Positions 3,795 through 28,783 of a stretch of DNA of 64,000 nucleotides are shown here, piece after piece (the first letter of the stretch is position 1; the number at the start of each line of letters is the position of its first letter). The position numbers and the translations under genes were made by a program. This DNA is from an uncultured Methanomassiliicoccales archaeon. GTDB lineage: Archaea; Thermoplasmatota; Thermoplasmata; Methanomassiliicoccales; UBA472. The notes beneath the pieces were generated by a model. It was not told the origin of the DNA. It saw only the letters and a program-made list of their open reading frames with translations, and made no database searches. Location of the stretch: the NCBI GenBank assembly GCA_963710685.1, contig CAVQBH010000014.1, positions 16,724-80,723 on the forward strand, given 5' to 3'.

Positions 3795-3836
3795 TTGACC
3801 GCAAGCACCGGGCGATATATTTGTCGGAACATAACG
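3795..3836 (+). promoter_or_regulatory. Promoter (-35 TTGACC) overlapped by a ModE-box-like operator CGATATAT-N7-AACATAACG (3813-3836)
   Basis: Closely matches the E. coli modA-type ModE site CGTTATAT-N7-TACATAACG (recalled consensus). A ModE-family gene closes the operon at 10083. Confidence 0.75.
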
Positions 3837-3918
3837 CTAGTCCGCCGCTTGGCGCTGCGGGCGAAGACCAAAACCAGATTAGTAACCAACATTCGATCCG
3901 AAAGGCTCGCGATCAGAC

Positions 3919-4689
3919 ATGAATAGCTCCAGACACCTCGCCCTTGCCTGCCTCGTGGCGGCTCTCGCTGCCGGCCCCGCGGCTCTGGCCAGCAACACCT
4001 TCACCGACCAGATCACCACCGACACCTACCTTGACAGCAGCAGCCCTACCGCCAACTTCGGCCTGTCCGGCAACGACAAGGTAGTTATCAACAGTACCTC
4101 CATGTGCCGGACGCTGTTCGATCTTCCCACCAGCCTCTGGTCTTACGCCCCGGGCGACATCCTGTCAGCTTCCGTCTCCTTTTATGTCTGGAGCGACAGC
4201 TCGGCCACTTACAATGTTTCCCTCTTCCCCCTAACCACCGCATTTGTCGAAGGAACCGGCGGCAAGAACGGCAAGATCCCAGCCGACGGTGCCACCTGGC
4301 TCACCTACGACGGCACACACTCCTGGACCGCCGCCGGCGGCGACTTCGATTCCGCTTATTCTGTGGTTGGCACCAAAGGCCCCATCGGCGTCAACCCCAG
4401 CGATAGCAATGGCCGCTTCTTCACCTTCGACATCACGTCCCTGCTGTCCAACCCGACGGCCGCCTCTGAACTCGAAAACTTCGGCGCCATGTTGAGAATT
4501 GACGAGACGGTACCGCCCAGCGGCCAGCGTTACGACTCGTTTACCAGCGCCAACAGCACGAGCTATTCGATCCCGTACCTTCCTTCCATTGAAGTAACCG
4601 TCGTGCCGGAGCCCTCAATCTCGGCACTGGGCGCGCTCGGTCTCGCCGCACTTGCCTCCTTCTTCAAGCAACGCAAAACGCGGCCCTGA
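3919..4689 (+). CDS. DNRLRE-like domain protein with PEP-CTERM sorting signal
   Basis: Signal peptide; DTYLDS..PTANFG; GATW..YDG..W..AGGDF; C-terminal VPEPS + TM + basic tail. Confidence 0.85.
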   Translation: MNSSRHLALACLVAALAAGPAALASNTFTDQITTDTYLDSSSPTANFGLSGNDKVVINSTSMCRTLFDLPTSLWSYAPGDILSASVSFYVWSDSSATYNVSLFPLTTAFVEGTGGKNGKIPADGATWLTYDGTHSWTAAGGDFDSAYSVVGTKGPIGVNPSDSNGRFFTFDITSLLSNPTAASELENFGAMLRIDETVPPSGQRYDSFTSANSTSYSIPYLPSIEVTVVPEPSISALGALGLAALASFFKQRKTRP

Positions 4690-4700
4690 GCCAAGACCGG

Positions 4701-5561
4701 ATGGTGCAAGCGCCCAATGAGATAACAACCACCGCTGATGGCACCCGGCAGACCCCGCAGACCCCGCACCATCCCGCCGCGTTCACCCTTGTGGAGTTGC
4801 TGGTGGTCATTGCCCTGATCGCCTTTCTGGCCGCGTTGCTCCTCCCGGCGCTGTCCAAAGCCAAGGCGAAGGCCATGGAAGCGAAGTGCTCTGCCAACCT
4901 CCGCTCCTGGGGCCAGTCGTTTTACCTCTACGCCAACGATCACAACGGATACCTGCCGCACACCGACGACGAGGGCCGCAACGACCCTCCCTTCACCTTC
5001 GACCCCAAACACCCGGAACACGAGTGCGGCTACGTGGACGTCCTGCCCCCTTGCATGGGCCTGCCCGCTTGGCGCGACTACACTAACGGACAGAAGCCGA
5101 CCGCCGGTGTCTGGCAATGCCCCTCAGCCAAACCCCTGCCGGACTCGGCTTACAACGCCGCTTTCAAACCCTCCAGCCAGGGCTACCACAGCTACGTCAT
5201 GAACTCCTACCTGGAGCAGGACTTCCTTTACGGCCTACCGTTCGGTGTCAGCCCGCAGCCCAGTTTCTTGAAGTTGGAGAAATGCACCTGCCTGCCCATG
5301 ACCATCCTCATGTTCGAGCAAACCCTTGATCCGAGCCAGGGCTACGGCCAGGCGGGAGGCTTTGACACCGCCGGGTGCTACACCGCCGAGGACCCCCGAG
5401 CGCTTGGCGAACGCCACCCGCACGAGCGCCCCAGCCTCGCCGGCAACGTCCTCTACCTCGACACCCACGTCGGCTGGCGCGACGACCTGTGGAACAAGGC
5501 CCTCACCAACCCCCGCATTCCCAAGCGAGGCGACCTGACATGGTTCCCCTACTATTACTGA
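4701..5561 (+). CDS. Prepilin-type N-terminal cleavage/methylation protein (DUF1559/H-X9-DG type)
   Basis: [38 protein letters not shown] and C-terminal H...GNVLYLDTH. Confidence 0.9.
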   Translation: MVQAPNEITTTADGTRQTPQTPHHPAAFTLVELLVVIALIAFLAALLLPALSKAKAKAMEAKCSANLRSWGQSFYLYANDHNGYLPHTDDEGRNDPPFTFDPKHPEHECGYVDVLPPCMGLPAWRDYTNGQKPTAGVWQCPSAKPLPDSAYNAAFKPSSQGYHSYVMNSYLEQDFLYGLPFGVSPQPSFLKLEKCTCLPMTILMFEQTLDPSQGYGQAGGFDTAGCYTAEDPRALGERHPHERPSLAGNVLYLDTHVGWRDDLWNKALTNPRIPKRGDLTWFPYYY

Positions 5562-5608
5562 TGAAAGCGCAGCACCACGTCCGCAACCTTACCCTGTCCC
5601 GGTACCCC

Positions 5609-6508
5609 ATGAACACACCGGCTCTCCTATTGGCGCTCGCGTTAGCCGCCCAATCGGCTTGCGCCCTCACCAACACGCTCACCATCACCAACACCACGTA
5701 CCTCGACAGCCGCGTCTCGAACCAAACACTCAATTACGGACACGCCCACACCGTCAAGGCCCTCATCAATAACAACGTCACTAGCGACGGTTCCATGTGC
5801 CGGGGCCTCATTCAGCTTCCAGCGCAGATATGGGCCTATCCCCCGGAGCAGATCCTGTCCGCCACCGTCGTCTTCTACGTATGGCAGGACAACAGCGGCA
5901 CCCGCAACGTCACACTCTATCCATTGACCCAGACCTTCGTCCAGGGAACCGGCACGGGAACCGCGCCCGCCGACGGCGCCACCTGGCTCACCTATGACGG
6001 CATCAACCCTTGGACTAATCCCGGCGGTGACTTCGACTCCGCCAACCCGGTTGTCGGAGTCAAAGGTGACATCCTCGATGCGGACCTCAACGACCGCTTC
6101 TTCTATTGGGACATTACCCCATTGCTGAAAAACACCAGCCGGACAGAGCTGCAAAGTTATGGAGCCATACTCCGAATGGATGAAACGCCCGTGCCCACCA
6201 CCGGCTCGCCCCGCGCCCCTTTCACTAGTTCCTACGACCCCAGCTACACGCCGCCCTACTGGCCCTCTCTTCAGTTCACCATTGCACCCACGCTGGCCGG
6301 CGTCTTGGTGTCGGGCGGTGCCATATCGTTTACCATCAGCAATCTCACCCTCGGCGCCACCAACACCATCGAGCGCTCGCTAAACCTCGCCACCAACGAC
6401 TGGGCCGCGGTTTCTTCTTTCGTCGCCACCAGCACCTCGACAAATTGGTCCGAAACCCTGCAGCCCGGATGGACCAAAGCCTTCTACCGGCTCCAGACCC
6501 AGCAATGA
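5609..6508 (+). CDS. DNRLRE-like secreted protein, paralog of 3919-4689, with C-terminal FYRL domain
   Basis: Shares TYLDS, SMCR, ILSA.V.FYVW, PADGATWLTYDG and GGDFDSA with 3919-4689; ends IERSLNL..W...FYRL. Alternative start at 5561. Confidence 0.8.
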   Translation: MNTPALLLALALAAQSACALTNTLTITNTTYLDSRVSNQTLNYGHAHTVKALINNNVTSDGSMCRGLIQLPAQIWAYPPEQILSATVVFYVWQDNSGTRNVTLYPLTQTFVQGTGTGTAPADGATWLTYDGINPWTNPGGDFDSANPVVGVKGDILDADLNDRFFYWDITPLLKNTSRTELQSYGAILRMDETPVPTTGSPRAPFTSSYDPSYTPPYWPSLQFTIAPTLAGVLVSGGAISFTISNLTLGATNTIERSLNLATNDWAAVSSFVATSTSTNWSETLQPGWTKAFYRLQTQQ

Positions 6509-7122
6509 ACGCGAGCCCAGCCGAAGAACCCATCGCTCAAACCGCAACCGCTCAGCCCGTCACCCGCATGGGGACCAGGCACTGGGTCTTCATCGGCTCA
6601 ATGGTCGCGCTCGACTTCGCCACCGGCCAGCTCATCAAGTCCATCCTCCACGCCTCGGGGATTAGCAATTTCATCCGCCTTGACATGTTCATCCCGGTGA
6701 CCCTCTGGATGCTCACCCGGCTGGTCGTGGACCGCTTCGGCGTCCTCACCGCCTATCAATTCGCCTGGGGCGTGCTCGCCATCTTCGCCTTCCCCGGCGC
6801 AATGCTGCCCGGCCCCCTCAAGCTCATTCCCGCCGTCATGCAGGGCCTCATTCACGATGCCGGCTTCTCCCTGCTGCCCCGTTACCCTCGTGGGCGGGTT
6901 TTCGTCTCCGCCGTTGTCGGCGGCCTCGTCAGCAAAATCGTCGTCACCGCCCTGCGCGTCCAGGTCCTCGGCCTCCCGTGGACCAAAGTCACGCAGGCTC
7001 TGTTCGGCGTCCAGGCCCTGACTTCCATCCTCGTTAGCGCCGCGGCGGCCGGGTTGGCGCTGGTCGTATGGTCTCGCATCCGCAATCTGCACATCACCCG
7101 CTTGATGAGCGTTCGGGCCTGA
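6505..7122 (+). CDS. Putative ECF transporter S-component (integral membrane)
   Basis: About 205 aa with 5-6 TM segments, directly upstream of the duplicated ABC ATPase and EcfT. Confidence 0.65.
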   Translation: MNASPAEEPIAQTATAQPVTRMGTRHWVFIGSMVALDFATGQLIKSILHASGISNFIRLDMFIPVTLWMLTRLVVDRFGVLTAYQFAWGVLAIFAFPGAMLPGPLKLIPAVMQGLIHDAGFSLLPRYPRGRVFVSAVVGGLVSKIVVTALRVQVLGLPWTKVTQALFGVQALTSILVSAAAAGLALVVWSRIRNLHITRLMSVRA

Positions 7123-8518
7123 TCCGCACCTGGCAGTTGGCCTTCCAGCCCGCCGGCGCCGACGCCCCGCTCCTCCAGGACATCTCCCTCCACATCGAGG
7201 CGGGCGAGCGCGTCGGCATCATCGGCCCTTCAGGGTCGGGCAAGACTACTCTCGCCCTCCACCTCGCCGGCCTCCACCACGTCGCACTGCTCGGCCGCAG
7301 CTCTGGCTCCCTCTGGCTCCAGGGCCGCGACTGCACCTGCTCCGGCTCTGAAGGCTTCGCCGGCGTCGTCCTCCAAAACCCCGAAATCCAGCTCTTCGGC
7401 GAAACCGTTGAAGAGGAAGTTTCCCTCAGCCTCCAACAACAGCCTGCCGACGTTGACCGCCAGAGCGAACTGCGCCGTTGGCTCGACCTCTTCGGCCTCG
7501 ACACCGTGCGCGACCGCCGCGTAGCAACGCTCTCGCTGGGCTGGAAACAACGCCTCTCCATCGCCAGCATGTTGGCGCTCGAACCCAAGGTCCTCTTGCT
7601 CGACGAACCCACCAGCTACCTCGACGAGCCTACCGCCGACCTCCTTTTCGACCTGCTCGCCGTCCAGTCCAAGAACGCCGGCCTCACCGTCCTCGTCATC
7701 GAGCATGACCTTCCCCGCCTCACCCGCTGGGCTTCGCGCCTGGTGGCCATGCGCCAGGGCCGCATCGCCTTCGACGGCCCGCCGGCAAACTACTCGCCAC
7801 CCCAACCCCTCGCCCCGCCCCACCGCGTCTCCGAGCCGCCGCGCTCCCCTGCGCCGCCAACTCCCTCCTCTCGCTCGAAGGAGTCACCTTTGCCTACAAC
7901 GGCCACGGAACTGCGCTCGACAACGTCTCGCTCTCCGTGGCGCCGGGTGAGATCGTCGCCTTGGTCGGCCCGAACGGCTCCGGCAAAAGCACCCTGCTCA
8001 ACCTCGCCAAGGGCCTCCTTGAACCCGACCAGGGACGAATCTCCTGCGGCTCCGCGGCCCCGCGCATGGATGCCGTCGGCCTCGTGTTCCAGAACCCCGA
8101 CAGCCAAATCTTCGCCCACTCTGTCTTCGAGGAGTGCTCGTTCCTGCCTCGCAATCAGAACTTCCCACCGGACGAGGTCACCACTCGCACCCGGCAGGCC
8201 CTGACCCAGGTGGGGTTGCAGTCGCATGAAGACCGGGCCCCCTTTTCACTCAGCTACGGCGAAAAGCGGCGCCTCACCCTCGCCTCGACCCTGTCAGGGC
8301 GCTCCACCGTGCTCTGCCTCGACGAGCCCACCGTCGGACTCGACCGCGATTGCCTCGCCCAGGTGGCTGCCACCCTCAACCATGTCAGCGCCCAGGGCTC
8401 AGGCGTCCTGCTCGCAACCCATGATCACGAATTCGTCCGCGCCGTGGCCACTCGCGTCGTGTCGCTCCGCGCCGGCCGCATCGTGAGCGACACCGGCCCG
8501 CAAGGAGGCATCGTATGA
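7119..8518 (+). CDS. ECF transporter duplicated ATPase (EcfA-A' fusion), apparent frameshift near 7880
   Basis: Two NBDs: GPSGSGKT/LQNP/LSLGWKQR/LLDEPT and GPNGSGKS/FQNP/LSYGEKRR/LDEPT, split over two frames. Start uncertain. Confidence 0.85.
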
Positions 8519-9222
8519 CCCGCCCGCTGGTGGACCAGGCTCAACCTCCTGACCCGGCTGACACTGTTCCTGGTGCTCTGCCTGCACGCCGCCACGGGAC
8601 ACCACTTCCTCCCCCAGTTGCTCCTCTGCTCCGGCCTTCTCCTTCTCCTGTTCGCCAGCGGAGTCGCCGGGCCGCATGCTCGGCTCCTCCTCTGGGCGCA
8701 CTTGCTGGGGCTGCCTGCCACCGTCCTTCTCTTCCTCGCCATCGGGTACGAAGACCGCCCGCTCCTTCTCCGGAGCCGTATCCTGGGGCCTGGTCGAAGC
8801 TCTCCGCTACGCCCTGCGCATTGAGTGTCTCCTCCTTGCCAACCTCCTCTTCATCGGCATCACCACCCCGTTGGAGATCATCTCCCTCTTCAACGCGCCC
8901 GTGGATCCCGCCCGCCGTCGGCACGCTCCTGTCCACTGCCGTGCGCTTCCTTCCCCTCTCCCTGGCCGAAGCCCGCCGCATCTACGACATTCAGCGCTGC
9001 CGTGGCCTGCGCCTGCGTCCCTGGGCTCCACAAAGCTGCCTCCCTGTCATAGTGCCCCTGTTCGTATCGCAAATGTGCCGAGCCCACGACACCTCCGTAA
9101 TGCTCGTCGTACGGCGCATTGCCACCGTCACCCGGGGCGCGTCGCCCTGCAAAGTTCGGCCTCGGCGGACCTGGTCCTTCTCGGACTCGCCCTCGCCTCC
9201 TGCCTCTCCTATCCTGCTATAA
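8515..9222 (+). CDS. ECF transmembrane component EcfT/CbiQ (several apparent frameshifts)
   Basis: TTP.EI, A.RFLP....EARRI..IQRCRG and PVIVPLF spread across frames. Confidence 0.75.
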   Translation: MTRPLVDQAQPPDPADTVPGALPARRHGTPLPPPVAPLLRPSPSPVRQRSRRAACSAPPLGALAGAACHRPSLPRHRVRRPPAPSPEPYPGAWSKLSATPCALSVSSLPTSSSSASPPRWRSSPSSTRPWIPPAVGTLLSTAVRFLPLSLAEARRIYDIQRCRGLRLRPWAPQSCLPVIVPLFVSQMCRAHDTSVMLVVRRIATVTRGASPCKVRPRRTWSFSDSPSPPASPILL

Positions 9223-9233
9223 GGAATCAAACT

Positions 9234-10044
9234 ATGCCAATGAATCGCGAAATCCTGTCTCGCCTCCTGGCGCAACTGCCCGAGCCCGCGCCGCGGCTCG
9301 AGGACCTGCATATCTCCCTGCACTGGGTCATCGTCAATTGCCATCGCTACGCCATGGCCACCTTCATCCGCCCCAGCTAACCCCTTCGACGCCTGCTTCC
9401 AGCCGGCGTATCTCGGCGACCAGCTCGGCCGCCCCATCCCCGAAATCGCCGACCGCTTCGCCGATTCCGAAGACACTCTCCGCCTTGGCCTCATCAACGC
9501 CTGTCTCAACGGCTCCATTCCGCTCCCCCGGGATACGTTCGAGGCCAACGCCGTTGATCCCTTCGCCGACTTCATAAAGCACTCCCGCACTTGCTTCATC
9601 GGCCACTTTCCCCAGGCGGAAATCTGGCGCGCCCAGGGACACCCCGTTACCATCATCGAACTCCAGCCCCGCAACGGCGACATCTCCTGGGCCGACTCCA
9701 AGCCCGTCCTCCGCGAGGCCGAAATCGTTTTCATCACCGGCCTGACCCTCCTCAACAACACCTTCCTGGAAGTCCTCGACCGCACCCCCCGCGCCCGCTA
9801 CCGCGTCTTGCTGGGCCGTAGCGTTCCCTTCTCCTCCATGTTCTTCGACTATGGAATTCAGCTCGTCGGCACAACGCACATCGCCGACCCCGCTCTCGCC
9901 CTCCGCTATTGTCAACACGGAGGCACGAACGTTCACCAGGCCCCGCCGGGCGCCCTGCGCCTGGTCAACGTTACCAACCAGCCCGCCCTCAAGGCCGAAC
10001 TGGCCCGCCTACGCCAGCAACCCAAAGACCCTTCCCCCAAATAA
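9234..10044 (+). CDS. DUF364 (Rossmann-like, putative metal/pterin-binding) protein, frameshift near 9380
   Basis: Downstream frame reads GLINAC..., IGHFP, IIEL.P, ITGLTLLNNT and LLGRSVP, typical of DUF364. Confidence 0.75.
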
Positions 10045-10082: not shown

Positions 10083-10454
10083 TCAGCGCTTAAGCAGCCG
10101 GCGGAACTCCCGAAACCCTTCCTCAATGGCCGCCTGGCTCTGCTCCTCCATCCGCCGATACAACACCACCACCTCCCGCCCCACCTCGGTCAATACCGCG
10201 CCGCCACCCGTTTTACCTCCGCGCTTGCACACCACCGCCGGCGACCGAAACCGCGCGTTCAGACTCTTCACGTGCTTCCACGCCGTCAGGTAGGCCATCC
10301 CCATCCGTGCCGCCGCCGCCTGCAGGCTGCCGGTCTCTCCAATCAGCTCCAGCAACTGCACTCGGCCGGGTCCCAAAGCCGCGTCCCGGCCACACATGAC
10401 CCGCAGCCGCGGCAGCACTGATGCCGGCGGCCCCGCACATTTCTTCTTCCGCAT
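10083..10454 (-). CDS. modE: Short ModE-family winged-helix regulator (no TOBE domain)
   Basis: LGPGRVQLLELIGETGSLQAAAARMGMAYLTAW and RGGKTGGGAVLTEVG; about 123 aa. Confidence 0.85.
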   Translation of the reverse strand: MRKKKCAGPPASVLPRLRVMCGRDAALGPGRVQLLELIGETGSLQAAAARMGMAYLTAWKHVKSLNARFRSPAVVCKRGGKTGGGAVLTEVGREVVVLYRRMEEQSQAAIEEGFREFRRLLKR

Positions 10455-10587
10455 AAAGCTCCGGCACAAGATGGCGCCAAGCGTGCGAAGAAAGCGAATC
10501 CATTCTGCCAGGCACTCGGGTTGGGGCACCAAGGGGAATCCCTCTTTGCCCTCTACGAAAAGCCCGCCAATAAGCCGCGCTGGTGGT

Positions 10588-11745
10588 TCATGCACTGATT
10601 TCGGCCAGGCGATGGGTGGGGGTGGGCTTGCCGGGGCGGAAGTGGTCCAGTAGGTGGAGCGATACCACAAGAGTGTCAAACGGGGTAGCCGCGGCCTGCA
10701 ACCCCTCGCGCACGGCTGTGCCGAGCACTTCGGGCGCTGCCTCTGCCCGCAGGTTGATCATCAACTGCCCACCCGTCACCGGCACGCCCAAGCGAGCCCC
10801 TGCCTCCGGGGCGACATCGCTGCGAACAATGTTAATGCTGGCGACTTTGCCGCCACCGTCGTCCGGCACCAGTGTCATCTTCAGGTGGGCGATTTCTGCT
10901 TTGGCGGCGCAGAGGCGGTTGCGTAATTGGACCGCCAGCTCCAGCAGGAACAGGTCACCGTTAAACTTCTTCCTGGCCGCCAGCCGTGCCGTGCAGTTTG
11001 ACCAGCCCAGCCGCGCTTCGCCATCGGCATACACCTCGTAATCAACCTGCATCGCCCGGCCGGAGCGCTGTTCCTCGCGGGTGATCCTTTCGAACCACGC
11101 CTCCAAATTCGTGCTTTCGCGTGCTGACACGGCCAGGATCTCCTTGCGGGGGAAAGTGGCCGCGATGGCTTCCCGCAAAGACGCCAGCCGCCGCTCGTCC
11201 AACAGATCGCACTTGCTGATGACGATCAGGTCCGCCTCCTCAATTTGCTTCTGGTAAATGTAAAGCACCTTGTCGGAGAAGGTGCCGCCGGGCTCGACGC
11301 CGAAGGAGCGCAACGCCCGAACAGGATCCACCAGCACGCTGACCGGCGCGACCGTGAGGTTCGCGCCATGCAGCCGCCGCAGCGGGTAGGCCACGGTTGC
11401 GACCAGGTCGGTGCAACTGCCGACCGGCTCGGCAATGAAAACGTCAGGCCGGCTCCGCTGCGCCAGCTTGCGCGCGGCTTCCACCAACGCGTCGAACCGG
11501 CAGCAGAAACAGCCGCCGGGGATTTCTTCGGTCCGGAAGCCCTGGCAACGCAGCAGCGTCGTGTCAACGAGGTTACGGCCCTGGTCATTGGTGATGAGGC
11601 CCACCCGCAGGCCCTGGCGTGTAAGATGCGCGGCCAGACGACCCACGGCGGTAGTCTTGCCCGCACCCAGGAAGCCTCCGATCATGATGTAGCGAGGCTT
11701 GGGGGACCCCGCCGCCGTTCCTGGTTGAAATTCGGATGCTTTCAC
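10588..11745 (-). CDS. CobW/HypB/UreG-family (G3E) GTPase metallochaperone
   Basis: GGFLGAGKTT, ITNDQG, GGCFCC, EPVGSCTD and SKCD. Start (GTG 11745) uncertain. Confidence 0.85.
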   Translation of the reverse strand: MKASEFQPGTAAGSPKPRYIMIGGFLGAGKTTAVGRLAAHLTRQGLRVGLITNDQGRNLVDTTLLRCQGFRTEEIPGGCFCCRFDALVEAARKLAQRSRPDVFIAEPVGSCTDLVATVAYPLRRLHGANLTVAPVSVLVDPVRALRSFGVEPGGTFSDKVLYIYQKQIEEADLIVISKCDLLDERRLASLREAIAATFPRKEILAVSARESTNLEAWFERITREEQRSGRAMQVDYEVYADGEARLGWSNCTARLAARKKFNGDLFLLELAVQLRNRLCAAKAEIAHLKMTLVPDDGGGKVASINIVRSDVAPEAGARLGVPVTGGQLMINLRAEAAPEVLGTAVREGLQAAATPFDTLVVSLHLLDHFRPGKPTPTHRLAEISA

Positions 11746-11809
11746 CGAGACCCGACGTTCGCTTCCTCGGCTGTTTTTAGTGATTTGCGCTCCGACCACG
11801 ATCTCCCTT

Positions 11810-17537: not shown

Positions 17538-17544
17538 GCCACGC

Positions 17545-17907
17545 TCATTTGGGTTTTGTTTCTTCGTCCGGCACATAGACGACTTGGCCGTTGGCGAGGC
17601 GATAGGCCGTGCCGAGGCGTATGCCCTGGCCGGAGAGTGTCTTGTCGGTGACCTTCTGCACCTTAATCTGAGCTCCGTGCTTGGTGATGATCTCCATCTC
17701 GCCGGACTCGGTCTGCTTGACGAGCGTTACGTTGGACTTCTTGTCGAGCAATGTGCCGGACGAAAACAGGGCAAACAGCGCGATCAGCAGCGCGACGATG
17801 AACGCCACGCTCACATCGAACAGATTCGCGATGCCAGCCAGCGGGTCCTCGTCATGCCCTGGCGCCGGGCCGTGAGCCGAAATCCGATGCCGCTGAACGA
17901 AGCGCAT
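17545..17907 (-). CDS. DUF2149 protein (HmuV-like)
   Basis: EDPLAGIANLFDVSVAFIVAL and G.RLGTAYRL.NG.VVYVP. Confidence 0.9.
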   Translation of the reverse strand: MRFVQRHRISAHGPAPGHDEDPLAGIANLFDVSVAFIVALLIALFALFSSGTLLDKKSNVTLVKQTESGEMEIITKHGAQIKVQKVTDKTLSGQGIRLGTAYRLANGQVVYVPDEETKPK

Positions 17908-20811: not shown

Positions 20812-20837
20812 AAATGATTTAACGGTGTGGGAGTGAT

Positions 20838-21515
20838 TTATTGGGAAGCGTCCCATTCGTTTTGGGTGGTGATTGTTTTGAATTCGACGTGGTCGTCGCA
20901 ATACGCGGCCACAAAACCCTTCTTCGAGTGGCGATAATCCACATACGGAACCGGGTTGGTGAACGAACTGCCGCTGCCGCACCAGTAATCGCCCGGCGTG
21001 CAATCCCCATAAATAATGGTGCCCGAAGGATGGCGAATGTTGTTCGCTTGAACGCCATACCAGAAGCAATAAGCGTTACCCGCGAAGTTGAACGTGTTGA
21101 TGCCGTAGCTCAAAAAGATGTTCGTGTCCCAGGTCACGGGAATCTTTTTCAAATCCGAAGGGCACAGATAGACGCCGGAAGTTTTGCCAATGAATGGCTT
21201 CAACAAATCCATCCAGCGCGTGGTGGAATCAATCCAAGCCGGCGGGTAACTCTTGGCTTCATCCACGTACATCTGGGTGGCCAACCCGATTTGCCGGAGA
21301 TTGCTTTCGCAGCCTGCGCGTTTACCGCGTTCTTTCGCATTCGCCAATGCGGGCAACAGCAACGCGGCCAAAATCGCAATGATGGCGATGACCACCAGCA
21401 GTTCAATCAGCGTGAACGCCGCCTCTCCTCGATGCTGACCCAGGCAATGCGCATCCTTGCTCCAGGCTCTTAACGGTCTGCCTGGATGCAGCGGCTCTGC
21501 CCACGGTGCTTTCAT
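20838..21515 (-). CDS. Prepilin-type N-terminal cleavage/methylation protein (DUF1559/H-X9-DG type)
   Basis: [39 protein letters not shown] and RH....AAYCDDHVE. Confidence 0.9.
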
Positions 21516-21516
21516 G

Positions 21517-21562
21517 AGATTACGAATATATGAAATCGTAATACTGGCATCTCTGCCGTCAA
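21517..21562 (-). promoter_or_regulatory. Promoter TTGACG-N16-TACGAT overlapped by a 28-bp NikR-type operator (AGATTAC-N14-GTAATAC, 21517-21544)
   Basis: Perfect inner inverted repeat ATTACGA-N10-TCGTAAT at 21519-21542, adjacent to the divergent nikR. Confidence 0.75.
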
Positions 21563-21677: not shown

Positions 21678-22106
21678 ATGAAGCAAGAATTGGTTGAGCG
21701 GTTCACCGTGTCGGTGCCGGCGGCGCTTCTGCGCCAGTTTGACGGCATGGTGAACCAGAAGGGATACGAGAATCGTTCGCAGGCTATCGCCGATCAGATG
21801 CGCGACGCCCTCGTCGAGCACCAGCAAGAGTACGGCTCCGGCGAAATTGCCGGCACCATTACGCTCCTTTACGACCATCACAAGCAGCACGTCCAAGCAA
21901 CTCTCACCGACATCCAGCATGACCACCATGAGGTGATCGTCTCTACCCTCCACGTCCATCTCGACCACCATAATTGCCTGGAGGTCCTCGTCGTGCGCGG
22001 CCAGGCCAAAACCGTCAAGAAGATCGCCGACGAACTGATCGCCGCCAAGGGCGTTAAACATGGCAAGCTTACGGTCACCTCCACTGGCAAGGACCTTCCG
22101 GGCTGA
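21678..22106 (+). CDS. nikR: Nickel-responsive regulator NikR
   Basis: Ribbon-helix-helix RFTVS..GYENRS; YDHH; QH; HVHLDHHNCLEV; KGVKHGKL. Confidence 0.95.
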   Translation: MKQELVERFTVSVPAALLRQFDGMVNQKGYENRSQAIADQMRDALVEHQQEYGSGEIAGTITLLYDHHKQHVQATLTDIQHDHHEVIVSTLHVHLDHHNCLEVLVVRGQAKTVKKIADELIAAKGVKHGKLTVTSTGKDLPG

Positions 22107-22379: not shown

Positions 22380-23113
22380 ATGAACAAGAACACTTGATTC
22401 GCTCACCCGACGTGAGGCTATCCGACGCACTGCGCTCCTGAGCGGCCGTGGCGAGCTTTTGCTCCGCGGCTTTCCGTCGCATTCCGGCGCGGAACCGCCG
22501 GGGGCCTTTTCTCTGCCGCCGCTCGGCTATGCATTCGATGCGCTCGAACCTTACATCGACGCCCAGACGATGCAGATTCATCACGACAAGCACCACGCCG
22601 CCTACGTCGCCAACCTGAACAAGGCCTTGACCGAAGCACCTACGCTTCCGGCAAGCCCATCGAGTCCATCTTCCGCGACCTTGAAGGCGTTCCCGAACCA
22701 ATCCGCACCGCCGTGCGCAACAACGGTGGGGGCCATGCCAACCATTCGTTTTTCTGGCCGCAACTCAAGAACAACCAAGGGCATGGTCCTTCAGGCGAAC
22801 TGGCCAGGGCCATAGACAGCAGGTTTGCCGGCTTTGCCGGGTTTCAGCGCCAGTTCACCGAGGCAGCCACCAAGCAGTTTGGGAGTGGCTGGGCATGGCT
22901 CACGATTAGCGCCGACAAGCAACTTGCGGTTGAGTCCACGCCCAACCAGGACACGCCTCTGTCCAAAGGGCGCACGCCACTGCTTGGCATTGACGTTTGG
23001 GAGCACGCTTACTACCTCAAATACCAAAACCGCCGACCGGAATATATCGCGGCATTCTACGCGTTATCAATTGGGACGTAGTGGCTGACCGGTTCCAAAA
23101 GGCGACAGGCTGA
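22380..23113 (+). CDS. sodA: Mn/Fe superoxide dismutase with Tat-like signal (several apparent frameshifts)
   Basis: [36 protein letters not shown] and DVWEHAYY; TRREAI twin-Arg near the N-terminus. Confidence 0.9.
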
Positions 23114-23213: not shown

Positions 23214-23594
23214 ATGCGCGCCGCTATCCGATTTGTCACCGTGCTTGTGCTGGTCCTCTCGCTGGGCCTGCATTGGGCCTTCCTGCAATCGGTGGCCTGG
23301 GTGAGCATGATCGTCACTTACTCGCAAGACGCCTCCTTCACAGAAGCTGTGAGCAAGACTTTTGATGGCAAACATCCTTGTTGCATGTGCAAAGCCATCG
23401 CAAAGGCCCGCGCTGAACAGAAGCAAAAGGAACAGAAGCAGAACGTAAAGCCCGGTTCCAAGATGGATCCGGGGTTGGTTTGGCAGGCATCGCTCGTCGC
23501 TTTTTCATCGGCTGGCGAACGGATTCCCTGCGCAAACTCGGAAGCCTCCCTTCGGTCTTACGAACCTCCCAAGCCGCGCCCTCGCCCGGCTTAG
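23214..23594 (+). CDS. DUF2946-like CxxC leader protein with Pro/Arg-rich C-terminus
   Basis: N-terminal TM, FDGKHPCCMCK and C-terminal EPPKPRPRPA; promoter TTGACG-N16-TATTGT at 23178-23205. Confidence 0.65.
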   Translation: MRAAIRFVTVLVLVLSLGLHWAFLQSVAWVSMIVTYSQDASFTEAVSKTFDGKHPCCMCKAIAKARAEQKQKEQKQNVKPGSKMDPGLVWQASLVAFSSAGERIPCANSEASLRSYEPPKPRPRPA

Positions 23595-23775
23595 TCTCCC
23601 ACTCTATTCCGGGCGTCGGTGTAGATACCGATTCCCAAAGTGCTCTGCTGATTGCCTCAGCAGGCAATTCCATGTTCGTGAGACCCGTTCTCAGCGCGTG
23701 GCGCATTGGCGCGCACACGGTGTAAACCAGAGCTTAGATACAAGATCAATTAAAAACCATAAAAGTAATCAAAAT

Positions 23776-24600
23776 ATGAAAAGTCAGATTAATTCGGCAG
23801 CCAAAACTAAATTGCGAAATCGTGTAGTCAATATTCTTGGATCCGCTGTGTTGGCGGGGTCTGTGCTCCCTGCTTCGGCCGACCTTTATCAAGTCACCGG
23901 CGGTTCAGTTTCGATGACAATCACGGAAGGCCTGGCCAGCAGCGTTGACAATTTTGACGCTTATTTTGACGCGACCGCCACCCGTGCCCAGACGCTCAGC
24001 GATCCGGCCCCGGGTAATGCGCCCTTCGCTGTTAATGGAGCGACTGTCACCGTGGTGGATCCGATTCGTCCCTACGGCGTTGTCCCCAGTCCGTACCCGG
24101 GCACTCCCGGTTCGACACGAAGCCCCCAGATGACAACACTCGAATTCGATTCCAACGATGTCCTTGGCAGTTGGAGTCTTTCCAATGACTCTTTTGGTTT
24201 TGTCGGAAATACGACACTGGGAGAGCAAATTGCGCTGACCAGTATGCAGCGCTGGACCGGGCCGTTCAGCGGCGCCTTGCTTTACGGTGATTTCGGACTT
24301 CGGCGGGTGTCGGCAACAGAGTTGGCGCTGACCAGCAACATTGACTTCCTGAATGCTGATTTCGCCGACATCGTAAACCCGACCATTTCAGTAACAGACG
24401 ATACGCTGACGATCAGCGGCGACCTGCTCATGGGCAATGGGCTTTACCTGTTGGACCCAAGCGTGGTGCCCGGCACCGATTTCGGTACGTTCACAATGAC
24501 CGCGGGGATAGCGGCCGTTCCGGAGCCATCTGCTCTAGCCCTGCTCGGTCTTGGCGCGGTGGTCCCGTTGCTGCGCCGCATCCCCAGGTTAAACCGCTAA
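23776..24600 (+). CDS. PEP-CTERM surface protein of unknown domain
   Basis: Signal peptide; C-terminal VPEPSAL + TM + RR; paralog of 24671-25714. Confidence 0.85.
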   Translation: MKSQINSAAKTKLRNRVVNILGSAVLAGSVLPASADLYQVTGGSVSMTITEGLASSVDNFDAYFDATATRAQTLSDPAPGNAPFAVNGATVTVVDPIRPYGVVPSPYPGTPGSTRSPQMTTLEFDSNDVLGSWSLSNDSFGFVGNTTLGEQIALTSMQRWTGPFSGALLYGDFGLRRVSATELALTSNIDFLNADFADIVNPTISVTDDTLTISGDLLMGNGLYLLDPSVVPGTDFGTFTMTAGIAAVPEPSALALLGLGAVVPLLRRIPRLNR

Positions 24601-24670: not shown

Positions 24671-25714
24671 ATGAAGCTGCGTTTGCCTTCGCTTATGGCG
24701 ATGTTCCCCATCGTCCTCGGCATGGCGATAAACTCCGCTCGCGCACTGACGATCACCGGTGGCACCGCTACCCTGACTCTGGAGGAGGGCAAAGCCGACA
24801 GTATTAGCTGGCTGGACGCCTATTTCAGCGACGCCAAAACCCGGGGGCAAACCCTGTCGGACCCAGCTCCGGGCGACGCACCGTATGTCCGTCTGTCGGG
24901 AACACCCGGCACCATCGGAACGGGCTCGACATCGGGTGTGCTGGGCGTTCCCGGGATCGTTCAGGTCACGGATACGATCCGCCCTTTCGGAGTGATTCCC
25001 ACCCCGCCAGCGCCGGACACCTATCCCGGCACCCCGGGGTCTTCACGCTCGAGGCAAGTCACGACGCTTGATTTTAGCCCGACCAACATTCTGGGCAGTT
25101 GGACCGCATCGACCGACCTGGTTGGCGTATTCGTCACCACCGACGCCTTGAGTGAGCAAATCGCTTTTACCTGTATGCAACGTTGGGGAGGGCCATTTAC
25201 TGGCGTGCTGATCTACGGCGATTTTGCCTTGCGTTACGTGCCCACCCGTGCGGGGACTGTGGCTCCGGGTGGAACCCTGTCGGGGCTGGCGATGGTAAGT
25301 AACATCGACTTCCTCGATTCATCCTGGGCCGACCTGGCCAATGCTTCCATCACTTTCAGCAACAATACGCTGAACATATCAGGCGACCTGTTGATTTCCG
25401 GCGCGCTCAACCTGCTTGACCCGACAGCGACGGTGGGAACGAAATTTGGAACGTTCAGCATGAACGCCACCGTCTTACTCCCCACTCCGCTCATCCATCG
25501 CTTCGCCAGGAATGGCGGCATGGTAACGTTAGAGGCCATGAATGGCCTGCCGAACGGCGGCTACACCGTGCTTTCCTCCACAAACCTCGCGCTGCCGCTC
25601 GCTGCCTGGAGTGTGAGCGCAACGGGCTCGTTCGACGCGAGCGGAACCTGTTCAAACTCCATTCCAACACTGCCGGGGGAAAGCGCACGATTCTTCCGGC
25701 TGCAGCAGCCGTGA
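24671..25714 (+). CDS. Secreted paralog of 23776-24600 with C-terminal FFRL domain
   Basis: Shares [37 protein letters not shown] and SNIDFL; ends [15 protein letters not shown]. Confidence 0.8.
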
Positions 25715-26514
25715 GTTCTGCGTTACAGGATCAAAGCCGGACCGTTGCTGCGGAAGTCCCCGGCGGCGGTCCGGGCTTGTGCCTGCGCGCATTCACCTTG
25801 ATCGAACTGCTCGTGGTCATCGCCGTCATTGCAATTCTGGCAGCGTTGCTATTGCCGGCTTTGGGCAAGGCAAAGCACCGTTCCAAGCGCACCGTCTGCC
25901 TGAACAATCTCCGGCAGATGACCCTCGCCGACACGATTTATTGCAACGACAACGGCCAATTGCCGGCGCCGAGCGACTACGTTCCGAGCAGCATTTCCGT
26001 CGCGCGGCTCACCCAAATGGCGCAGACCATCGGCATGACCGTGCCACCGGGTCCAGCCTCAGCGTGGCCGCCGCGCGCACAGCAACCACAGTGGTTCAAC
26101 TGTCCGCTGGCGACGGAATCCGGTTACGCCGAAGGGGTGACGCTCGGCGGCGGACTTTACACTGGTTATGTTTACGTCGGCGGCATCGAAAGATCCCAGA
26201 TGATCACGTTGGGGTTTGCCACGCTCGTAAACCCCGGCCAGGCAGCCGATTACAAAAACACCCGGCGCGGCGTCTTATGGGCTGACATTTTGGATGAGTA
26301 CCTCATGGCCGATCCACGCCGCTTTGAATATTTCCATCCCATCAAACAAATCAAATACCCTGATTTTCGCTTCGAGGCGAACGACCTCGAAGGCATCAAC
26401 CGCGCGTGGTCCGATGGCTCAGTGGAGTGGACAGGCGGCAAACGCCTCGACTTGACCGGTGCAAATAGTTCCGACCTGCGCATCAAACACATTCTCGGCA
26501 ACTACTACTTCTGA
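25711..26514 (+). CDS. Prepilin-type N-terminal cleavage/methylation protein (DUF1559/H-X9-DG-like)
   Basis: [36 protein letters not shown] and [13 protein letters not shown]. Confidence 0.9.
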
Positions 26515-26527
26515 AACCAAAACATTT

Positions 26528-27367
26528 ATGAACCAGCAAGTCTTTTCCCGTCGCGAGGCTTTGAAACTTCTGACGCTCGCTTCCGCCGCCGGCGCGATTG
26601 CCCCGCAAGTTGTTACCGGCGCGGAGACACATTCCTTGCATGGCCAAGCTCAGGAACAACTTCGCATGGGCAGTGAGCAAATTGCGATTCTCGTTTATCC
26701 TGAATTCACCGCACTCGACGCGCTCGGCCCGCACTACGCACTTTCCGGCATGATGGGCGCGACGGTGCGGTTCGTCGCCAAAACGCTCGACCTCGTTCCG
26801 TGCGAAGGCGCGAGCAAGGGCGGTTATTGCGTGAAGCCGCAACTGACCTTTGCCGACTGCCCCAACCATCTGGACTTGCTGCTCGTGCCCGGCGGACTCG
26901 TCGGAACGCTCGCCGCCATCGAAGATAAAGAGACGATTCAATTTTTGCAAAGCAGCGCCACGAGGACGAAACTCATGAGCAGCGTTTGCACGGGATCACT
27001 CCTGCTCGGCGCGGCGGGTCTGCTCAAAGGCCGCAAAGCCACCAGCCACTGGCAAATGCTCGAAGTTTTGAAAGATGTCGGGGCAACGCCGGTCGCGGAG
27101 CGCGTTGTCTTCGACGGCACCGACCGAGTAACCGCCGCTGGTGTCAGCGCCGGCTTGGATTTGGGTTTTGAACTCGTCCGCCACTATCGCGGCGATTTTT
27201 ACGCGAAGGGAATGCAGTTGCTAGGCGAATATGATCCACATCCACCATTCCCTGGCGGTGGCAATCCCAAGACCGCCGATTCAACCGTAGTGAACATGCT
27301 CAACATGATGCACGCACCCCTGGCGGAGAAATTCAAAGCCGCCATCGCCCATGCCACAACGAAATAG
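26528..27367 (+). CDS. Tat-exported DJ-1/PfpI protein, isonitrile hydratase (InhA)-like
   Basis: SRREALK Tat motif; FTALDALGP, SVCTGS, ATSHW, TAAGVSAGLD and EYDP.PPF..G.P. Confidence 0.85.
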   Translation: MNQQVFSRREALKLLTLASAAGAIAPQVVTGAETHSLHGQAQEQLRMGSEQIAILVYPEFTALDALGPHYALSGMMGATVRFVAKTLDLVPCEGASKGGYCVKPQLTFADCPNHLDLLLVPGGLVGTLAAIEDKETIQFLQSSATRTKLMSSVCTGSLLLGAAGLLKGRKATSHWQMLEVLKDVGATPVAERVVFDGTDRVTAAGVSAGLDLGFELVRHYRGDFYAKGMQLLGEYDPHPPFPGGGNPKTADSTVVNMLNMMHAPLAEKFKAAIAHATTK

Positions 27368-27414
27368 ACACAACGCTGACAATTAATTCCGAACAACCGA
27401 AACACCAAAAGCAA

Positions 27415-27764
27415 ATGAGCACCAATTCAGTCATCAAGAAGCTCCTCAGACTTGAGCTGCAGCCGCCTTAACCCTTTTCTGGTCAGCCAGCTTAACGCGT
27501 GGAGCGGATGCGCCCGCGTTCATCTCGAACGCCACCAACCAATTCACAATTACTGGCATGAGTTGCGACGGCTGCGCGCGGGGTATCGCCTCTGAGCTGA
27601 AGCGAGCCCCCGGCGTGGTGTCGGCGGGAGTATGCTTCAGCAACAGGCTGGCGACAGTGGTCTATGATACAAACCGCATTTCAGTCGCCGGCTTAAAGAA
27701 GGCAATCGTTGAAGCTGGCTATGGAGCCAAACTTGTTAAATCTGAAACAGCAAAGCGGCGGTGA
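27415..27764 (+). CDS. Heavy-metal-associated (HMA/CopZ/MerP-like) protein, likely exported; frameshift in the signal region
   Basis: GMSCDGC..I..EL...PGV...GY. Confidence 0.8.
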
Positions 27765-28425
27765 CTCGAAAGGTCATCCGTCGAATCGCCCGAGAGACGG
27801 GTTTGTCTCGGCGAGAACTCTGGGCACGCTGTTGCTCGGCCTCGCCATCGCCAGCGTGGCGGCCGTAGTCGCTCTTCTCCTAAGCCAGCGGGACAAGGCG
27901 GCCGGTCCTTCAAAGCCGGATCACCCACGTCGCCTAGTGGACTTCACTCTCACCGACCGAACTGGCCGGACGGTCACGCAGGCCGACCTGGCCGGGAAGA
28001 TTCTGGTTGTCAATTTCGTGTTCACCAGTTGCTTGTTGAGCTGCCGGGCCGTCAATGACCGCATGGCGGAGATTCAAGGTCTTCTCGGTGATGCCGAGGA
28101 CGTTCGATTGGTGTCGCTGACCGTTGACCCGCGCACCGACACACCCTCGGTCCTCTCGAAGTTTGCAGATGGCTTTCATGCAGACACAAATCGCTGGCTG
28201 TTCCTGACCGGCAACAAAACCGAGCTTTACGGCCTCATCGAGACCAGCTTCATTTCCAAAGCGCCCGAGTTGGAACCATTCATTCCGGGTGGATTCGCCA
28301 GCACGGACCGCATCATGCTGGTTGATGGGAATGGTTTGGTCCGTGGTTCCTTCAACGGATTGAAGCGGGGTGTGGCCGATGCCGTGGTCAGCGAGATTAG
28401 GAAACTCCGCATAATACCAACCTGA
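27761..28425 (+). CDS. SCO1/SenC family protein (start uncertain)
   Basis: DFTLTD..G, NFVFTSCLLSC, SLTVDP.TDTP and WLFLTG. Confidence 0.85.
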
Positions 28426-28426
28426 G

Positions 28427-28783
28427 ATGAAACACAGATTCCTCCTGCTCATCACCACCTTGAGCTTCAGCCTTTTCGATCTGCAATCCCGCCCGCGCGC
28501 ACGAATCTGCCCTTGCACAACAACCCGGTCCACTACGTCAGTGGCGTTATTCGGGAAATCGGCTCCGGACCGAACGAAGGCCGTAATCCGACATGAAGCC
28601 ATTCCGGATTACATGCCCGCAATGACCATGGAATTCAACGTGCACAACACGAACGAACTCAGCGGCTTGCGTCCAGGCGATGCCATCACCTTCCGGCTAA
28701 CCACCACAGACGATGCGCACTGGATCGACCTGGTTCGCAAGACTGGCATTGCGACAAATGGCCTGGCCGATGTGCCGACGTAG
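28427..28783 (+). CDS. CusF-like copper-binding protein (probably a CusF-SCO fusion cut at the junction)
   Basis: [17 protein letters not shown] and L.PGD.I.F.L; the stop coincides with the genome junction. Confidence 0.75.

Follow-up and report, generated by a model that had tools for sequence, protein, structure and literature searches.

Retractile competence pili, which import DNA through a secretin, are a precedent for pilus-driven uptake, and copper-regulated loci of the cruR-bfrG type reportedly join genes for TonB-dependent receptors (TBDTs) to DUF2946-type upstream open reading frames. The hmu operon of Bacteroidota comprises, in the available text of PMC12583661, the hemophore HmuY, the TonB-dependent receptor HmuR, the CobN-like dechelatase HmuS, for which Met-79 and His-254 are named as heme ligands, and HmuT/U/V. 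The locus described here lies in a window of 64,000 nucleotides (the whole stretch of DNA analysed; contig CAVQBH010000014.1, positions 16,724 to 80,723, hereafter part of C14) from assembly GCA_963710685.1, which is deposited as an uncultured Methanomassiliicoccales archaeon. Three cassettes were found at window positions 3795–28780, each with one prepilin-type gene, one secreted protein ending in an (F/Y)(F/Y)R tail (FYR tail) and metal-linked genes. The stretch up to 28780 is part of a 45.5-kb Verrucomicrobiota fragment that was mis-joined to a methanogen contig. We give an even chance to the reading that these are three independent metal-regulated acquisition cassettes, in which the pilin-like protein would serve as an envelope-side receptor or delivery part together with surface capture proteins.

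Few gene families of Planctomycetes and of many Verrucomicrobia are as large as that of the DUF1559-type pilin-like proteins, which is rarely mentioned in the literature searched. In that search no paper was found to link DUF1559-type pilins to NikR, ModE, copper or metal regulons; papers beyond the collection searched may do so.

Layout shared by the three cassettes

Genes were called from open frames and codon-position GC, and their products were scanned with Pfam and NCBIfam profiles. The prepilin-type genes lie at 4701–5561 (plus strand, pilin A), 21515–20838 (minus strand, pilin B) and 25711–26514 (plus strand, pilin C). Their products matched PF07963 (N_methyl) with E values of 9e-6, 2e-7 and 2.7e-5 and with 25.5, 30.7 and 24.0 bits, respectively, against a cut-off of 21.2 bits, and all three were above the cut-off of TIGR02532. 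PF07596 (DUF1559) matched pilin B (E 3.6e-8, 34.2 bits) over profile positions 2–44 of 268 only, and matched neither pilin A nor pilin C at E ≤ 0.01. The strict H-X9-DG motif (regular expression H.{9}DG) was present in none of the three pilins and TIGR04294 matched none of them; an H-X4-DG variant was seen in pilin C, and H-X9-DG was seen on reading cassette B orthologues such as that of locus L085. Models of GspG, ComGC and GspH matched the pilins weakly, over the N-terminal ~30–60 residues only and all far below their cut-offs. A first-pass annotation made from the sequence alone had described DUF1559/H-X9-DG prepilins in three operons: a prepilin-type gene does stand at all three starts, but the DUF1559 assignment shrinks to the partial match on pilin B and the strict motif is missing.

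The three FYR-tailed secreted proteins end in FYRLQTQQ (cassette A), RFYRAKTQ (B) and RFFRLQQP (C), and the tails are homologous over their last ~75–95 residues (32–35 % identity, E 1e-5 to 1e-8). Only three of the 102 open frames of at least 150 aa in the bacterial block carry such a tail. On the same cores, PEP-CTERM or dockerin-like ends can stand in place of the FN3-like (F/Y)(F/Y)R domain. This C-terminal domain may be a sorting or anchoring module of Planctomycetes–Verrucomicrobia–Chlamydiae (PVC) bacteria.

Other elements of the first-pass annotation were recovered as well. Secreted neighbours with PEP-CTERM and/or F(Y/F)R tails had been described, and both PEP-CTERM matches (one under the cut-off) and the three homologous FYR tails were found. 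Metal-handling genes do lie beside the pilins, namely ABC and CbiQ genes in cassette A, ExbB, DUF2149, CobN-like, radical SAM and CobW genes in cassette B, and DJ-1, SCO1 and CusF genes in cassette C. As had been noted, no TBDT lies in the cassettes; neither a barrel (PF00593) nor a plug (PF07715) was matched in the whole assembly, bacterial block included. No genes for a pilus assembly ATPase, platform protein or secretin were found within cassettes A, B and C.

The pairing of one pilin with one FYR-domain protein in each cassette, given the three tails in 102 frames, also speaks for an export role, in which the pilin-like protein would be a cargo-specific minor pseudopilin of type II secretion that pushes out its FYR or PEP-CTERM neighbour and takes no part in import. 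The metal regulation would then be accounted for by the secreted protein being a metal scavenger. PEP-CTERM proteins, however, are generally expected to use exosortase sorting, and we regard the export role as possible but rather unlikely.

Gene content, conservation and control of each cassette

Cassette B and its surroundings comprise the following features.

10588–11853, minus strand: CobW/HypB/UreG-family GTPase (PF02492, E 4.5e-25)
11810–13039, minus strand: radical SAM protein (NF045502 variant_rSAM, 198 bits against a cut-off of 125; PF04055)
13619–17576, minus strand: CobN/HmuS/ChlH-type class I chelatase large-subunit homologue in two frames (PF02514, E 3.6e-150 and 1.2e-134)
17545–17907, minus strand: DUF2149 protein (PF09919, E 3.7e-27)
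17911–18465, minus strand: MotA/TolQ/ExbB-family proton-channel protein (PF01618, E 1.8e-13)
18520–20856, minus strand: secreted protein of 778 aa with seven GloVer repeats, a DUF3344 part and an FYR domain (TIGR03803, E 5.3e-49; PF11824, E 7.7e-15)
20838–21515, minus strand: prepilin-type protein B, 225 aa (PF07963, E 2e-7; PF07596, E 3.6e-8, partial)
21518–21544: NikR-type dyad GATTACGA-N10-TCGTAATAC, between pilin B and nikR, just upstream of the pilin start
21678–22106, plus strand: NikR nickel-responsive regulator, divergent from pilin B (NF003381, 198.9 bits against a cut-off of 105; PF08753, E 1.7e-33)

A membrane protein of no named family is encoded between the CobN-like and radical SAM genes. 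The CobN-like protein has a signal peptide and is encoded in a single frame in loci L105 and L109. It matched the structures of CobN (E 2.4e-57), HmuS (E 3.6e-49) and ChlH (E 1.2e-47) in the PDB and, because it is about equally distant from all three, it cannot be called HmuS.

Two comparisons were made for this cassette. In the shallow one, a scan of metagenomes with the GloVer protein gave 37 loci. A pilin B orthologue (58–100 % identity) was found directly upstream of the GloVer gene in all 17 loci with upstream DNA, and the two genes overlap; this adjacency is also what would be expected of an export adaptor and its cargo. Where downstream DNA was available (18 loci), the GloVer gene was followed by ExbB in 15, the exceptions being L111, L115 and L119; in L106 a 4.7-kb insert separates the two. 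A nikR gene was present in 8/37 loci. Eleven low-identity GloVer matches covered the repeat part only and had no pilin.

In the deep comparison, 301 Verrucomicrobiota genomes were sampled, of which 42 had a CobN-type match, near full-length in eight (~32 % identity), and ten cassette B genome neighbourhoods were fetched and read. ExbB, DUF2149 and CobN occurred together in eight of the ten. A relative of pilin B (30–35 % identity over 170–230 residues) lay upstream on the same strand in six loci (L085–L089 and L093), all with the order pilin, DUF2162 membrane protein, ExbB, DUF2149 and CobN-like protein. These six loci count against the export adaptor, since the only secreted partner that they offer is the membrane-anchored CobN-like protein. 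The position of the pilin directly before the inner-membrane, transporter-like DUF2162 protein favours instead a membrane-anchored periplasmic binding protein, that is, a DUF1559-type protein held in the inner membrane by its N-terminal helix once the signal is cleaved, which would feed the ECF, DUF2162 or copper handlers, the outer membrane being crossed by diffusion or through unrelated channels and without a pilus. The Pfam name of the family, SBP_bac_10, points the same way, as do the Tuwongella proteins with both domains that were recovered in detergent-soluble membrane fractions, according to the available part of PMC8567305. The strict pairing of the pilins with surface-anchored proteins is left unexplained by an anchored binding protein, which we consider unlikely.

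The window dyad can be written more generally as GTATTACG-N10-12-CGTAATAC, and we take it to be of NikR type after the published NikR box types. In L085 and L087, nikR lies directly upstream of the pilin gene, and the intergenic sequence TATTACG-N11-CGTAATA (one mismatch in L087) has the half-sites of the window dyad. Among 12 metagenome loci, five (L104, L109, L112, L118 and L126) had a clear NikR-type dyad within 260 bp upstream of the pilin gene and one (L111) a doubtful pattern match; no such dyad was present in L105, L106, L110 and L114, where the pilin follows another gene. The NikR-like palindrome that had been reported at pilin B is confirmed: it recurs in orthologous loci, and a nikR gene lies nearby. 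Nickel-responsive control of cassette B appears likely.

The arrangement of neighbouring cassettes varied among relatives. In L118 (1–6870), identity to the window is 100 % across nikR, pilin B and the first part of the GloVer gene, but the copper cassette next to nikR is a different one, in which C0 (see below; 68 %), another pilin, SCO1 (84 %) and CusF (61 %) occur and genes for Y and DJ-1 are missing. The arrangement points to an exchange of cassettes among close strains. In L110 (11184–14827) and L114 (17193–20838) the CobN-like gene is directly followed by nikR, C0, SCO1 and CusF, and in L121 (5703–8276) by C0, Y' and pilin C, so that nickel and copper cassettes are neighbours in several relatives. 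In the window, a gene for an Fe/Mn superoxide dismutase (22459–23081, in two frames) lies directly 3' of nikR, between cassettes B and C.

Cassette C comprises the following features.

23214–23594, plus strand: membrane protein C0 of 126 aa with an HPCCMC motif (no Pfam or NCBIfam match)
23773–24600, plus strand: Y-family protein with PEP-CTERM (22.9 bits against a cut-off of 20.7, scored on the protein at 23698–24600)
24671–25714, plus strand: Y-family paralogue Y' with an FN3-like FFR C-terminal domain (141 homologues, structure model)
25711–26514, plus strand: prepilin-type protein C, 267 aa (PF07963, E 2.7e-5)
26528–27367, plus strand: DJ-1/PfpI-family protein (PF01965, E 6.7e-25) with a twin-arginine-like signal, SRREALK, found by eye
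27721–28425, plus strand: SCO1/SenC-family protein (PF02630, E 8.6e-22)
28427–28780, plus strand: CusF-like protein (PF11604, E 7.9e-13), its 3' end cut by the chimeric join

Homologues of Y' numbered 141 at E ≤ 1e-3, the named ones being from Verrucomicrobiota and Planctomycetota, and the only Pfam domain of the Y homologues is PEP-CTERM. The alignment of the family showed one core of ~230 residues with three kinds of C-terminus: PEP-CTERM, the FN3-like domain ending in FFRLQQP and a dockerin-like segment. An AlphaFold model of Y' (pLDDT 84, pTM 0.78) had no match at E ≤ 1e-3 in a Foldseek search of the PDB. When it was compared with 48,161 chains by VIA-align, the top five rows were all corynebacterial heme-binding CR-domain proteins, namely HtaA-C (Z 11.4, 6jsc), HtaB (11.1, 6jsb), ChtA (10.5, 9o0k), HtaA CR1 (9.8, 9o0j) and HbpA (7.8, 9bcj), the best row having a root mean square deviation of 2.6 Å over 144/167 residues. 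These matches cover model residues 21–274, and the C-terminal domain is FN3-like (Z ~7–7.8). Judged from the model, the Y-family core has the hemophore-like fold of heme-binding CR domains. Y182 is invariant in the family alignment, by which no equivalence to the heme-ligating residue of CR domains is implied.

A scan of species genomes gave 17 Y-family loci, in which partner genes were sought by tblastn. A pilin-type gene was found within 2.3 kb of the Y gene in 16/17 loci (none was detected in L012); in 15 of these 16 it follows the Y gene on the same strand at a distance of at most ~1 kb. Fifteen loci had a DJ-1 homologue, L016 and L020 having weak distant matches only, and Y, pilin and DJ-1 were all present in 14/17. 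C0 precedes the module in four of the 17 loci, and CusF and SCO1 follow it in three. Full-length pilin C orthologues (52–69 % identity) occurred in verrucomicrobial and phycisphaeral loci; the Pirellulales loci have a different pilin-type gene at that place. In one of the latter (L013, 11820–12263), a small lipoprotein gene with no Pfam match lies between the pilin-type gene and DJ-1. In locus L005 (3156–18507), a two-component system and a MauG/CCP-like protein are encoded along with two C0-like proteins, a CusF–SCO1 fusion and a further pilin accompanied by a PEP-CTERM protein; a 912-aa secreted protein of this locus had a weak copper(I)-binding CorA-like match (25.6 bits, under the cut-off of 27).

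The open reading frame at 23214 had been taken for a DUF2946-like CxxC leader. A DUF2946 identity was not supported, with no Pfam match even at E ≤ 5 and no NCBIfam match; the frame does not encode a leader but a membrane protein of 126 aa, conserved and with an HPCxMC motif. C0 homologues were found in L005, L007, L009 and L011 and also in L106, L109, L110, L114, L118 and L121. A copper link for cassette C is likely.

Cassette A comprises the following features.

3813–3836: ModE-type dyad CGATATAT-N8-ACATAACG, 83 bp upstream of the first cassette A gene
3919–4689, plus strand: secreted DNRLRE-domain protein of 256 aa with a PEP-CTERM-like tail (NF033679, E 1.3e-9)
4701–5561, plus strand: prepilin-type protein A, 286 aa (PF07963, E 9e-6; TIGR02532)
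5609–6508, plus strand: DNRLRE paralogue of 299 aa with an FN3-like FYR C-terminal domain (from translation, cross-matches and tail homology)
6445–7122, plus strand: multi-pass membrane protein, possibly the S component of an energy-coupling factor (ECF) importer (no Pfam or NCBIfam match)
7068–8518, plus strand: two ABC ATPase domains in two frames, the change at ~7790–7937 (PF00005, E 1.9e-27 and 2e-26)
8515–9380, plus strand: CbiQ/EcfT-like T component in at least two frames (PF02361, E 1.3e-5, 25.4 bits against a cut-off of 25)
10086–10460, minus strand: regulator of ~125 aa resembling the ModE N-terminal domain (TIGR00637, E 8.8e-22; HTH_1, E 2.8e-7)

The PEP-CTERM match (PF07589) of the first DNRLRE protein was 18.8 bits, below the cut-off of 20.7, and its orthologues in L099 and L100 share 59–60 % identity with it. 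Cassette A may encode an ECF-type importer, with two A domains, a marginal T component and a candidate S component, in broken frames; the frame change in the ABC ATPase is probably an assembly indel. The nearest Atlas clusters of the candidate S component (0.90–0.92) were partly ABC_cobalt or Trep_Strep, which is a lead only.

Full-length orthologues of pilin A (43–59 % identity) were found in five of the 301 Verrucomicrobiota genomes. In three of these five loci (L099–L101) the pilin, two DNRLRE genes and a ModE-like regulator occur together, in the order pilin, PEP-CTERM DNRLRE protein, FYR-tailed DNRLRE protein and convergent regulator. The pattern of the dyad at 3813–3836 has no second match in the 64 kb, and the same 8-N8-8 dyad stands upstream of the first cassette gene in all three loci, as CGTTATGT-N8-ACCATACG in L099 and L100 and as the perfect palindrome GTTATATCCAATTGGATATAAC in L101. 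The candidate site for a ModE-like protein may be written generally as CGTTATAT-N8-ATATAACG; the dyad is presumably of ModE type, a name that follows the E. coli ModE consensus.

Origin and quality of the bacterial block

The block C14:1–45503, which equals the window up to 28780, had a tetranucleotide correlation of 0.5–0.7 with the rest of the genome, compared with 0.8–0.92 past the break, and by the same profile no second contig of the assembly holds such a block. The archaeal assembly encodes McrA, and genes for an archaeal Hel308-type helicase, LonB, an archaellin and MvhD lie in the right half of the window; the relatives of the assembly have genomes of 1.2–2.7 Mb with several CobN paralogues. 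Composition, congener synteny and public contigs all placed the join at the same point.

28780–28781: chimeric join, bacterial to the left and archaeal to the right, where a thiolase gene is entered mid-frame

The thiolase gene is whole in three congeners (97–99 % amino-acid identity). These align with C14 from position 45504 and then continue gap-free into position 1 of contig C2, the start of which is the missing 5' part of the thiolase gene. A 30-letter consensus of archaeal public contigs ahead of the join was 100 % identical to C2:31–2. None of the 20 public runs listed contained more than 0.31 of the sampled words of 26800–30800, and no listed contig piece from four public runs bridged 28780|28781. 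A wetland contig (run X1) equals the window at 28673–28780 without difference and then continues into unlike sequence, and a freshwater contig (run X12) matches 28781–29018, preceded by 237 unlike letters. We rejected horizontal transfer into the archaeon, since the join cuts a conserved, otherwise intact thiolase gene, C2 starts exactly at the breakpoint and no listed public contig bridges the two sides. An unsampled wetland Verrucomicrobiota bacterium is the best explanation for the source of the block.

The last three bases of the region originally marked out (to 28783) are archaeal, so that the CusF-like frame takes its stop codon from the archaeal side, and what had been given as the end of the cassette is the chimeric join. 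Profile matches across the assembly comprised three prepilins, all in the window, no secretins and no TBDTs, and a pilin B homologue was found in 0/40 relatives of the assembly. Striking as they are, these whole-assembly counts (three prepilins, no TBDT and no secretin) were discarded as those of a methanogen carrying a foreign 45.5-kb block; because of the mis-join, whole-genome statements for this assembly are meaningless.

Genes in two frames were those for the ABC ATPase (7790–7937), CbiQ (8515–9380), CobN (15057–15265), superoxide dismutase (22713–22815) and thiolase (~29267). One extra base behind 29267 in a public contig restores the frame of the archaeal thiolase, and other single-base indels relative to the window were seen in aligned public contigs. 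These indels, together with the unbroken CobN of L105 and L109, make assembly indel errors the most likely cause of the frame splits in the bacterial block. Pseudogene decay of the ABC, CbiQ, CobN and superoxide dismutase genes was considered unlikely, given the single CobN frame in those two loci and the restored thiolase frame.

The block itself was reproduced in metagenomes, at 100 % identity in L118 (nikR, pilin B and the start of the GloVer gene), 98–100 % in L120 (the end of the GloVer gene to CobN) and 95 % in L104. With independent contigs matching the block at 95–100 %, an assembly artefact is no explanation for the cassettes. As the contig is chimeric and affected by indels, neither pilins nor NikR-regulated uptake nor PEP-CTERM proteins are to be attributed to the methanogen.

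The same data bear on the view that the genes are neighbours without a shared function, either because DUF1559 pilins are so numerous that their presence in metal loci is incidental or because the block is a mosaic artefact. It gains from the up to 313 first-look DUF1559 candidates in a single genome and from the join and indel errors of the window. Orthologous pilins recur, however, with the same partners across two phyla at 43–100 % identity, operators lie directly upstream of pilin genes, and L104, L118 and L120 contradict a mosaic. Conserved synteny appears to have largely refuted this view, which we hold to be very improbable.

In the flank of the cassettes (window 15–3703 and C14:1–16723), two type I phosphodiesterase/sulfatase-like genes and NTPase_1 were found, with phytoene-desaturase-like flavoproteins recognized by eye; no link of the genes in this flank to the cassettes was seen.

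Proposed role and comparison with known systems

The three cassettes were shown to be real, modular and conserved units. Their modularity is seen in L118, where another copper cassette stands beside an identical nikR, pilin B and GloVer start. For all three, the first-pass expectation that pilin and secreted genes would be co-conserved with regulators and transport genes in other genomes was borne out, and ModE-type and NikR-type dyads recur at the same position in orthologous loci. The first-pass interpretation is partly supported and outlasted the refuting tests that came with it. On these sequence comparisons, a transcriptional tie of the cassettes to NikR and to a ModE-type regulator is strongly supported, and a role as metal-regulated capture modules is well supported.

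TBDTs and DUF1559 proteins were counted in the 301 genomes as loose first-look matches. A TBDT match was present in 188 genomes and a DUF1559 match in 154, with up to 313 DUF1559 candidates per genome. Of 49 DUF1559-rich genomes (at least 50 first-look candidates), four had a TBDT match, compared with 184 of the 252 others (Fisher 5e-18, a value that ignores kinship). No TBDT barrel was found in the seven of the ten cassette B genomes that were searched (G419, G455, G434, G512, G392, G377 and G389), in all of which the fetched neighbourhood held ExbB–DUF2149–CobN and a pilin, upstream on the same strand in six and on the other strand in G389 (L090). Five of these TBDT-free, DUF1559-rich genomes (G419, G455, G434, G512 and G392) had 8–13 secretin-domain matches each, many more than typical model bacteria have. 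Cassette C genomes had 9, 0, 0, 1 and 0 TBDT matches.

A common scheme can be proposed for these observations. Each cassette would consist of a dedicated pilin-like protein, one or two secreted or cell-anchored binding proteins and periplasmic or inner-membrane handlers. The binding proteins would share a core and carry alternative C-terminal anchors, PEP-CTERM or the FN3-like FYR domain. The handlers would be an ECF-type ABC importer in cassette A; ExbB–DUF2149, a CobN/HmuS-like (de)chelatase, a radical SAM protein and CobW in cassette B; and a periplasmic DJ-1/PfpI protein, SCO1 and a CusF-like protein in cassette C. On metal shortage the repressor would leave its operator, and the surface proteins would then capture the metal or metallo-cofactor. 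The pilin-like protein, as an envelope-side receptor or delivery component, would hand the cargo to the handlers, either from a short pseudopilus working through a secretin or with its N-terminal helix as the anchor. Its step would be that of the TonB-dependent receptor in the hmu-, nik- and copper-type loci of other phyla. The modular pilus-based metal uptake proposed in the first-pass annotation keeps its support in the conserved metal-linked modules and the hemophore-like Y fold, while pseudopilus-driven uptake is a step that we infer. The wider proposal, that TBDT-free PVC bacteria import metals or metallo-cofactors through secretin/pseudopilus machines with one metal-regulated cassette (a pilin-like receptor and hemophore-like capture proteins) per substrate, is tentative and on balance unlikely.

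Several observations weigh against the acquisition reading. The contrast between DUF1559 and TBDT counts comes from loose first-look matches and is uncorrected for phylogeny. Among cassette C genomes, G333 (nine TBDT matches) and G336 (one) carry TBDTs on other contigs, and the cassette A genomes have three, two and one TBDT matches, likewise on other contigs. TBDTs and pilin cassettes therefore coexist and the exclusion is not strict; the proposal that TBDTs are excluded stands for the seven cassette B genomes and for the 4/49 against 184/252 contrast, but not for genomes with cassettes A and C. In cassette B, the pilin is distant or on the other strand in L090 and L091, and L084 and L092 hold a CobN-like gene without a pilin. 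In cassette C, the pilin model was poor (pLDDT 55), with only helix 30–81 confident and no ligand site seen; a complex prediction for pilin C (52–267) with Y' (24–347) reached 0.15 against a mark of 0.32, which is evidence neither way.

For cassette A, two of the five pilin A homologues (L102 and L103; 43 % identity, longer frames) are without the cassette. No transporter lies beside the L099 cassette, the neighbouring ABC gene being of the housekeeping ABC-F type, so the ECF-type importer appears to be specific to the window's version of cassette A. The ModE-like protein scored 77 bits on TIGR00637, under the cut-off of 98.5, and has no molybdate-binding (Mop/TOBE) domain, its only matches being to HTH_1 and ModE_repress. 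The ModE-like box had been read as giving Mo control: the unique dyad, its conservation in L099–L101 and the nearby regulator stand, but Mo control is not established because the regulator is without a molybdate-binding domain, and Mo or W is a candidate signal only for the control of cassette A. Finally, the location of DUF1559 pilins beside secreted-protein genes is a general and not a metal-specific pattern in Planctomycetes, as far as the available text of PMC8567305 goes.

That pattern, with DUF1559 pilin genes often flanked by signal-peptide genes in Tuwongella (PMC8567305, available text), is compatible with an export adaptor, and the many secretins of pilin-rich genomes fit export as well as import. 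An export role would leave the near-absence of TBDTs from these genomes unexplained. A membrane-anchored binding protein would in turn leave the secretin expansion unexplained and would provide no route for chelated or protein-bound ligands across the outer membrane of TBDT-free cells. The orthologous pilins tied to recognizable regulators, operators and metal handlers, the partner family with a hemophore-like fold and the near-complementary genome distribution with TonB-dependent receptors each offer a handle on what the pilin family does. The role of these pilins and the means by which TBDT-free diderms obtain chelated metals are old questions that are now directly testable, and cultured carriers of cassettes exist (Aquisphaera insulae, L017; Roseimaritima multifibrata, P0119). 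If the wider proposal of secretin/pseudopilus import is true, the hundreds of DUF1559 pilin genes would be a modular receptor repertoire, like the TBDT repertoires of Proteobacteria and Bacteroidota.

By analogy, the closest functional template for cassette B may be the hmu operon. The likeness lies in the CobN/HmuS-type homologue, the MotA/ExbB-family and DUF2149 proteins, with DUF2162 in orthologues, and in a secreted binding protein and an envelope component upstream, as are HmuY and HmuR in the available text of PMC12583661. Cassette B differs in having no TBDT or HmuY, a pilin-like gene and the GloVer/DUF3344 protein being in that position, and in its apparent NikR control instead of control by iron or heme; radical SAM and CobW genes follow, and its CobN-like protein is no closer to HmuS than to CobN or ChlH. 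The N_methyl and SBP_bac_10 (DUF1559) family of Planctomycetes shares the prepilin-type N-terminus, the expansion of the family and the signal-peptide neighbours. No function or metal-regulator link is reported for it in the available part of PMC8567305, whereas the orthologous pilins described here are linked both to operators of NikR and ModE type and to metal-handling genes.

The Y core (residues ~25–271) has, in the model, the same fold as corynebacterial HtaA, HtaB, ChtA and HbpA, which are likewise surface-anchored and encoded beside uptake genes. The Y family differs from them in having no sequence-family match, in its copper-linked context (SCO1 and CusF) and in its diderm PVC hosts. 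As in the cruR-bfrG copper-regulated TBDT loci, a small Cys-motif protein heads a copper-linked locus; C0 differs in that it has no DUF2946 match, is a 126-aa membrane protein conserved as a protein and is followed by no TBDT. With type IV competence pili and type II pseudopili, the cassette pilins share the N-terminal cleavage/methylation motif, but the cassettes have no machinery genes and the globular parts are unrelated by sequence. Where competence pili take in DNA, the cargo of the cassettes would be either a metal complex or a binding protein with its load.

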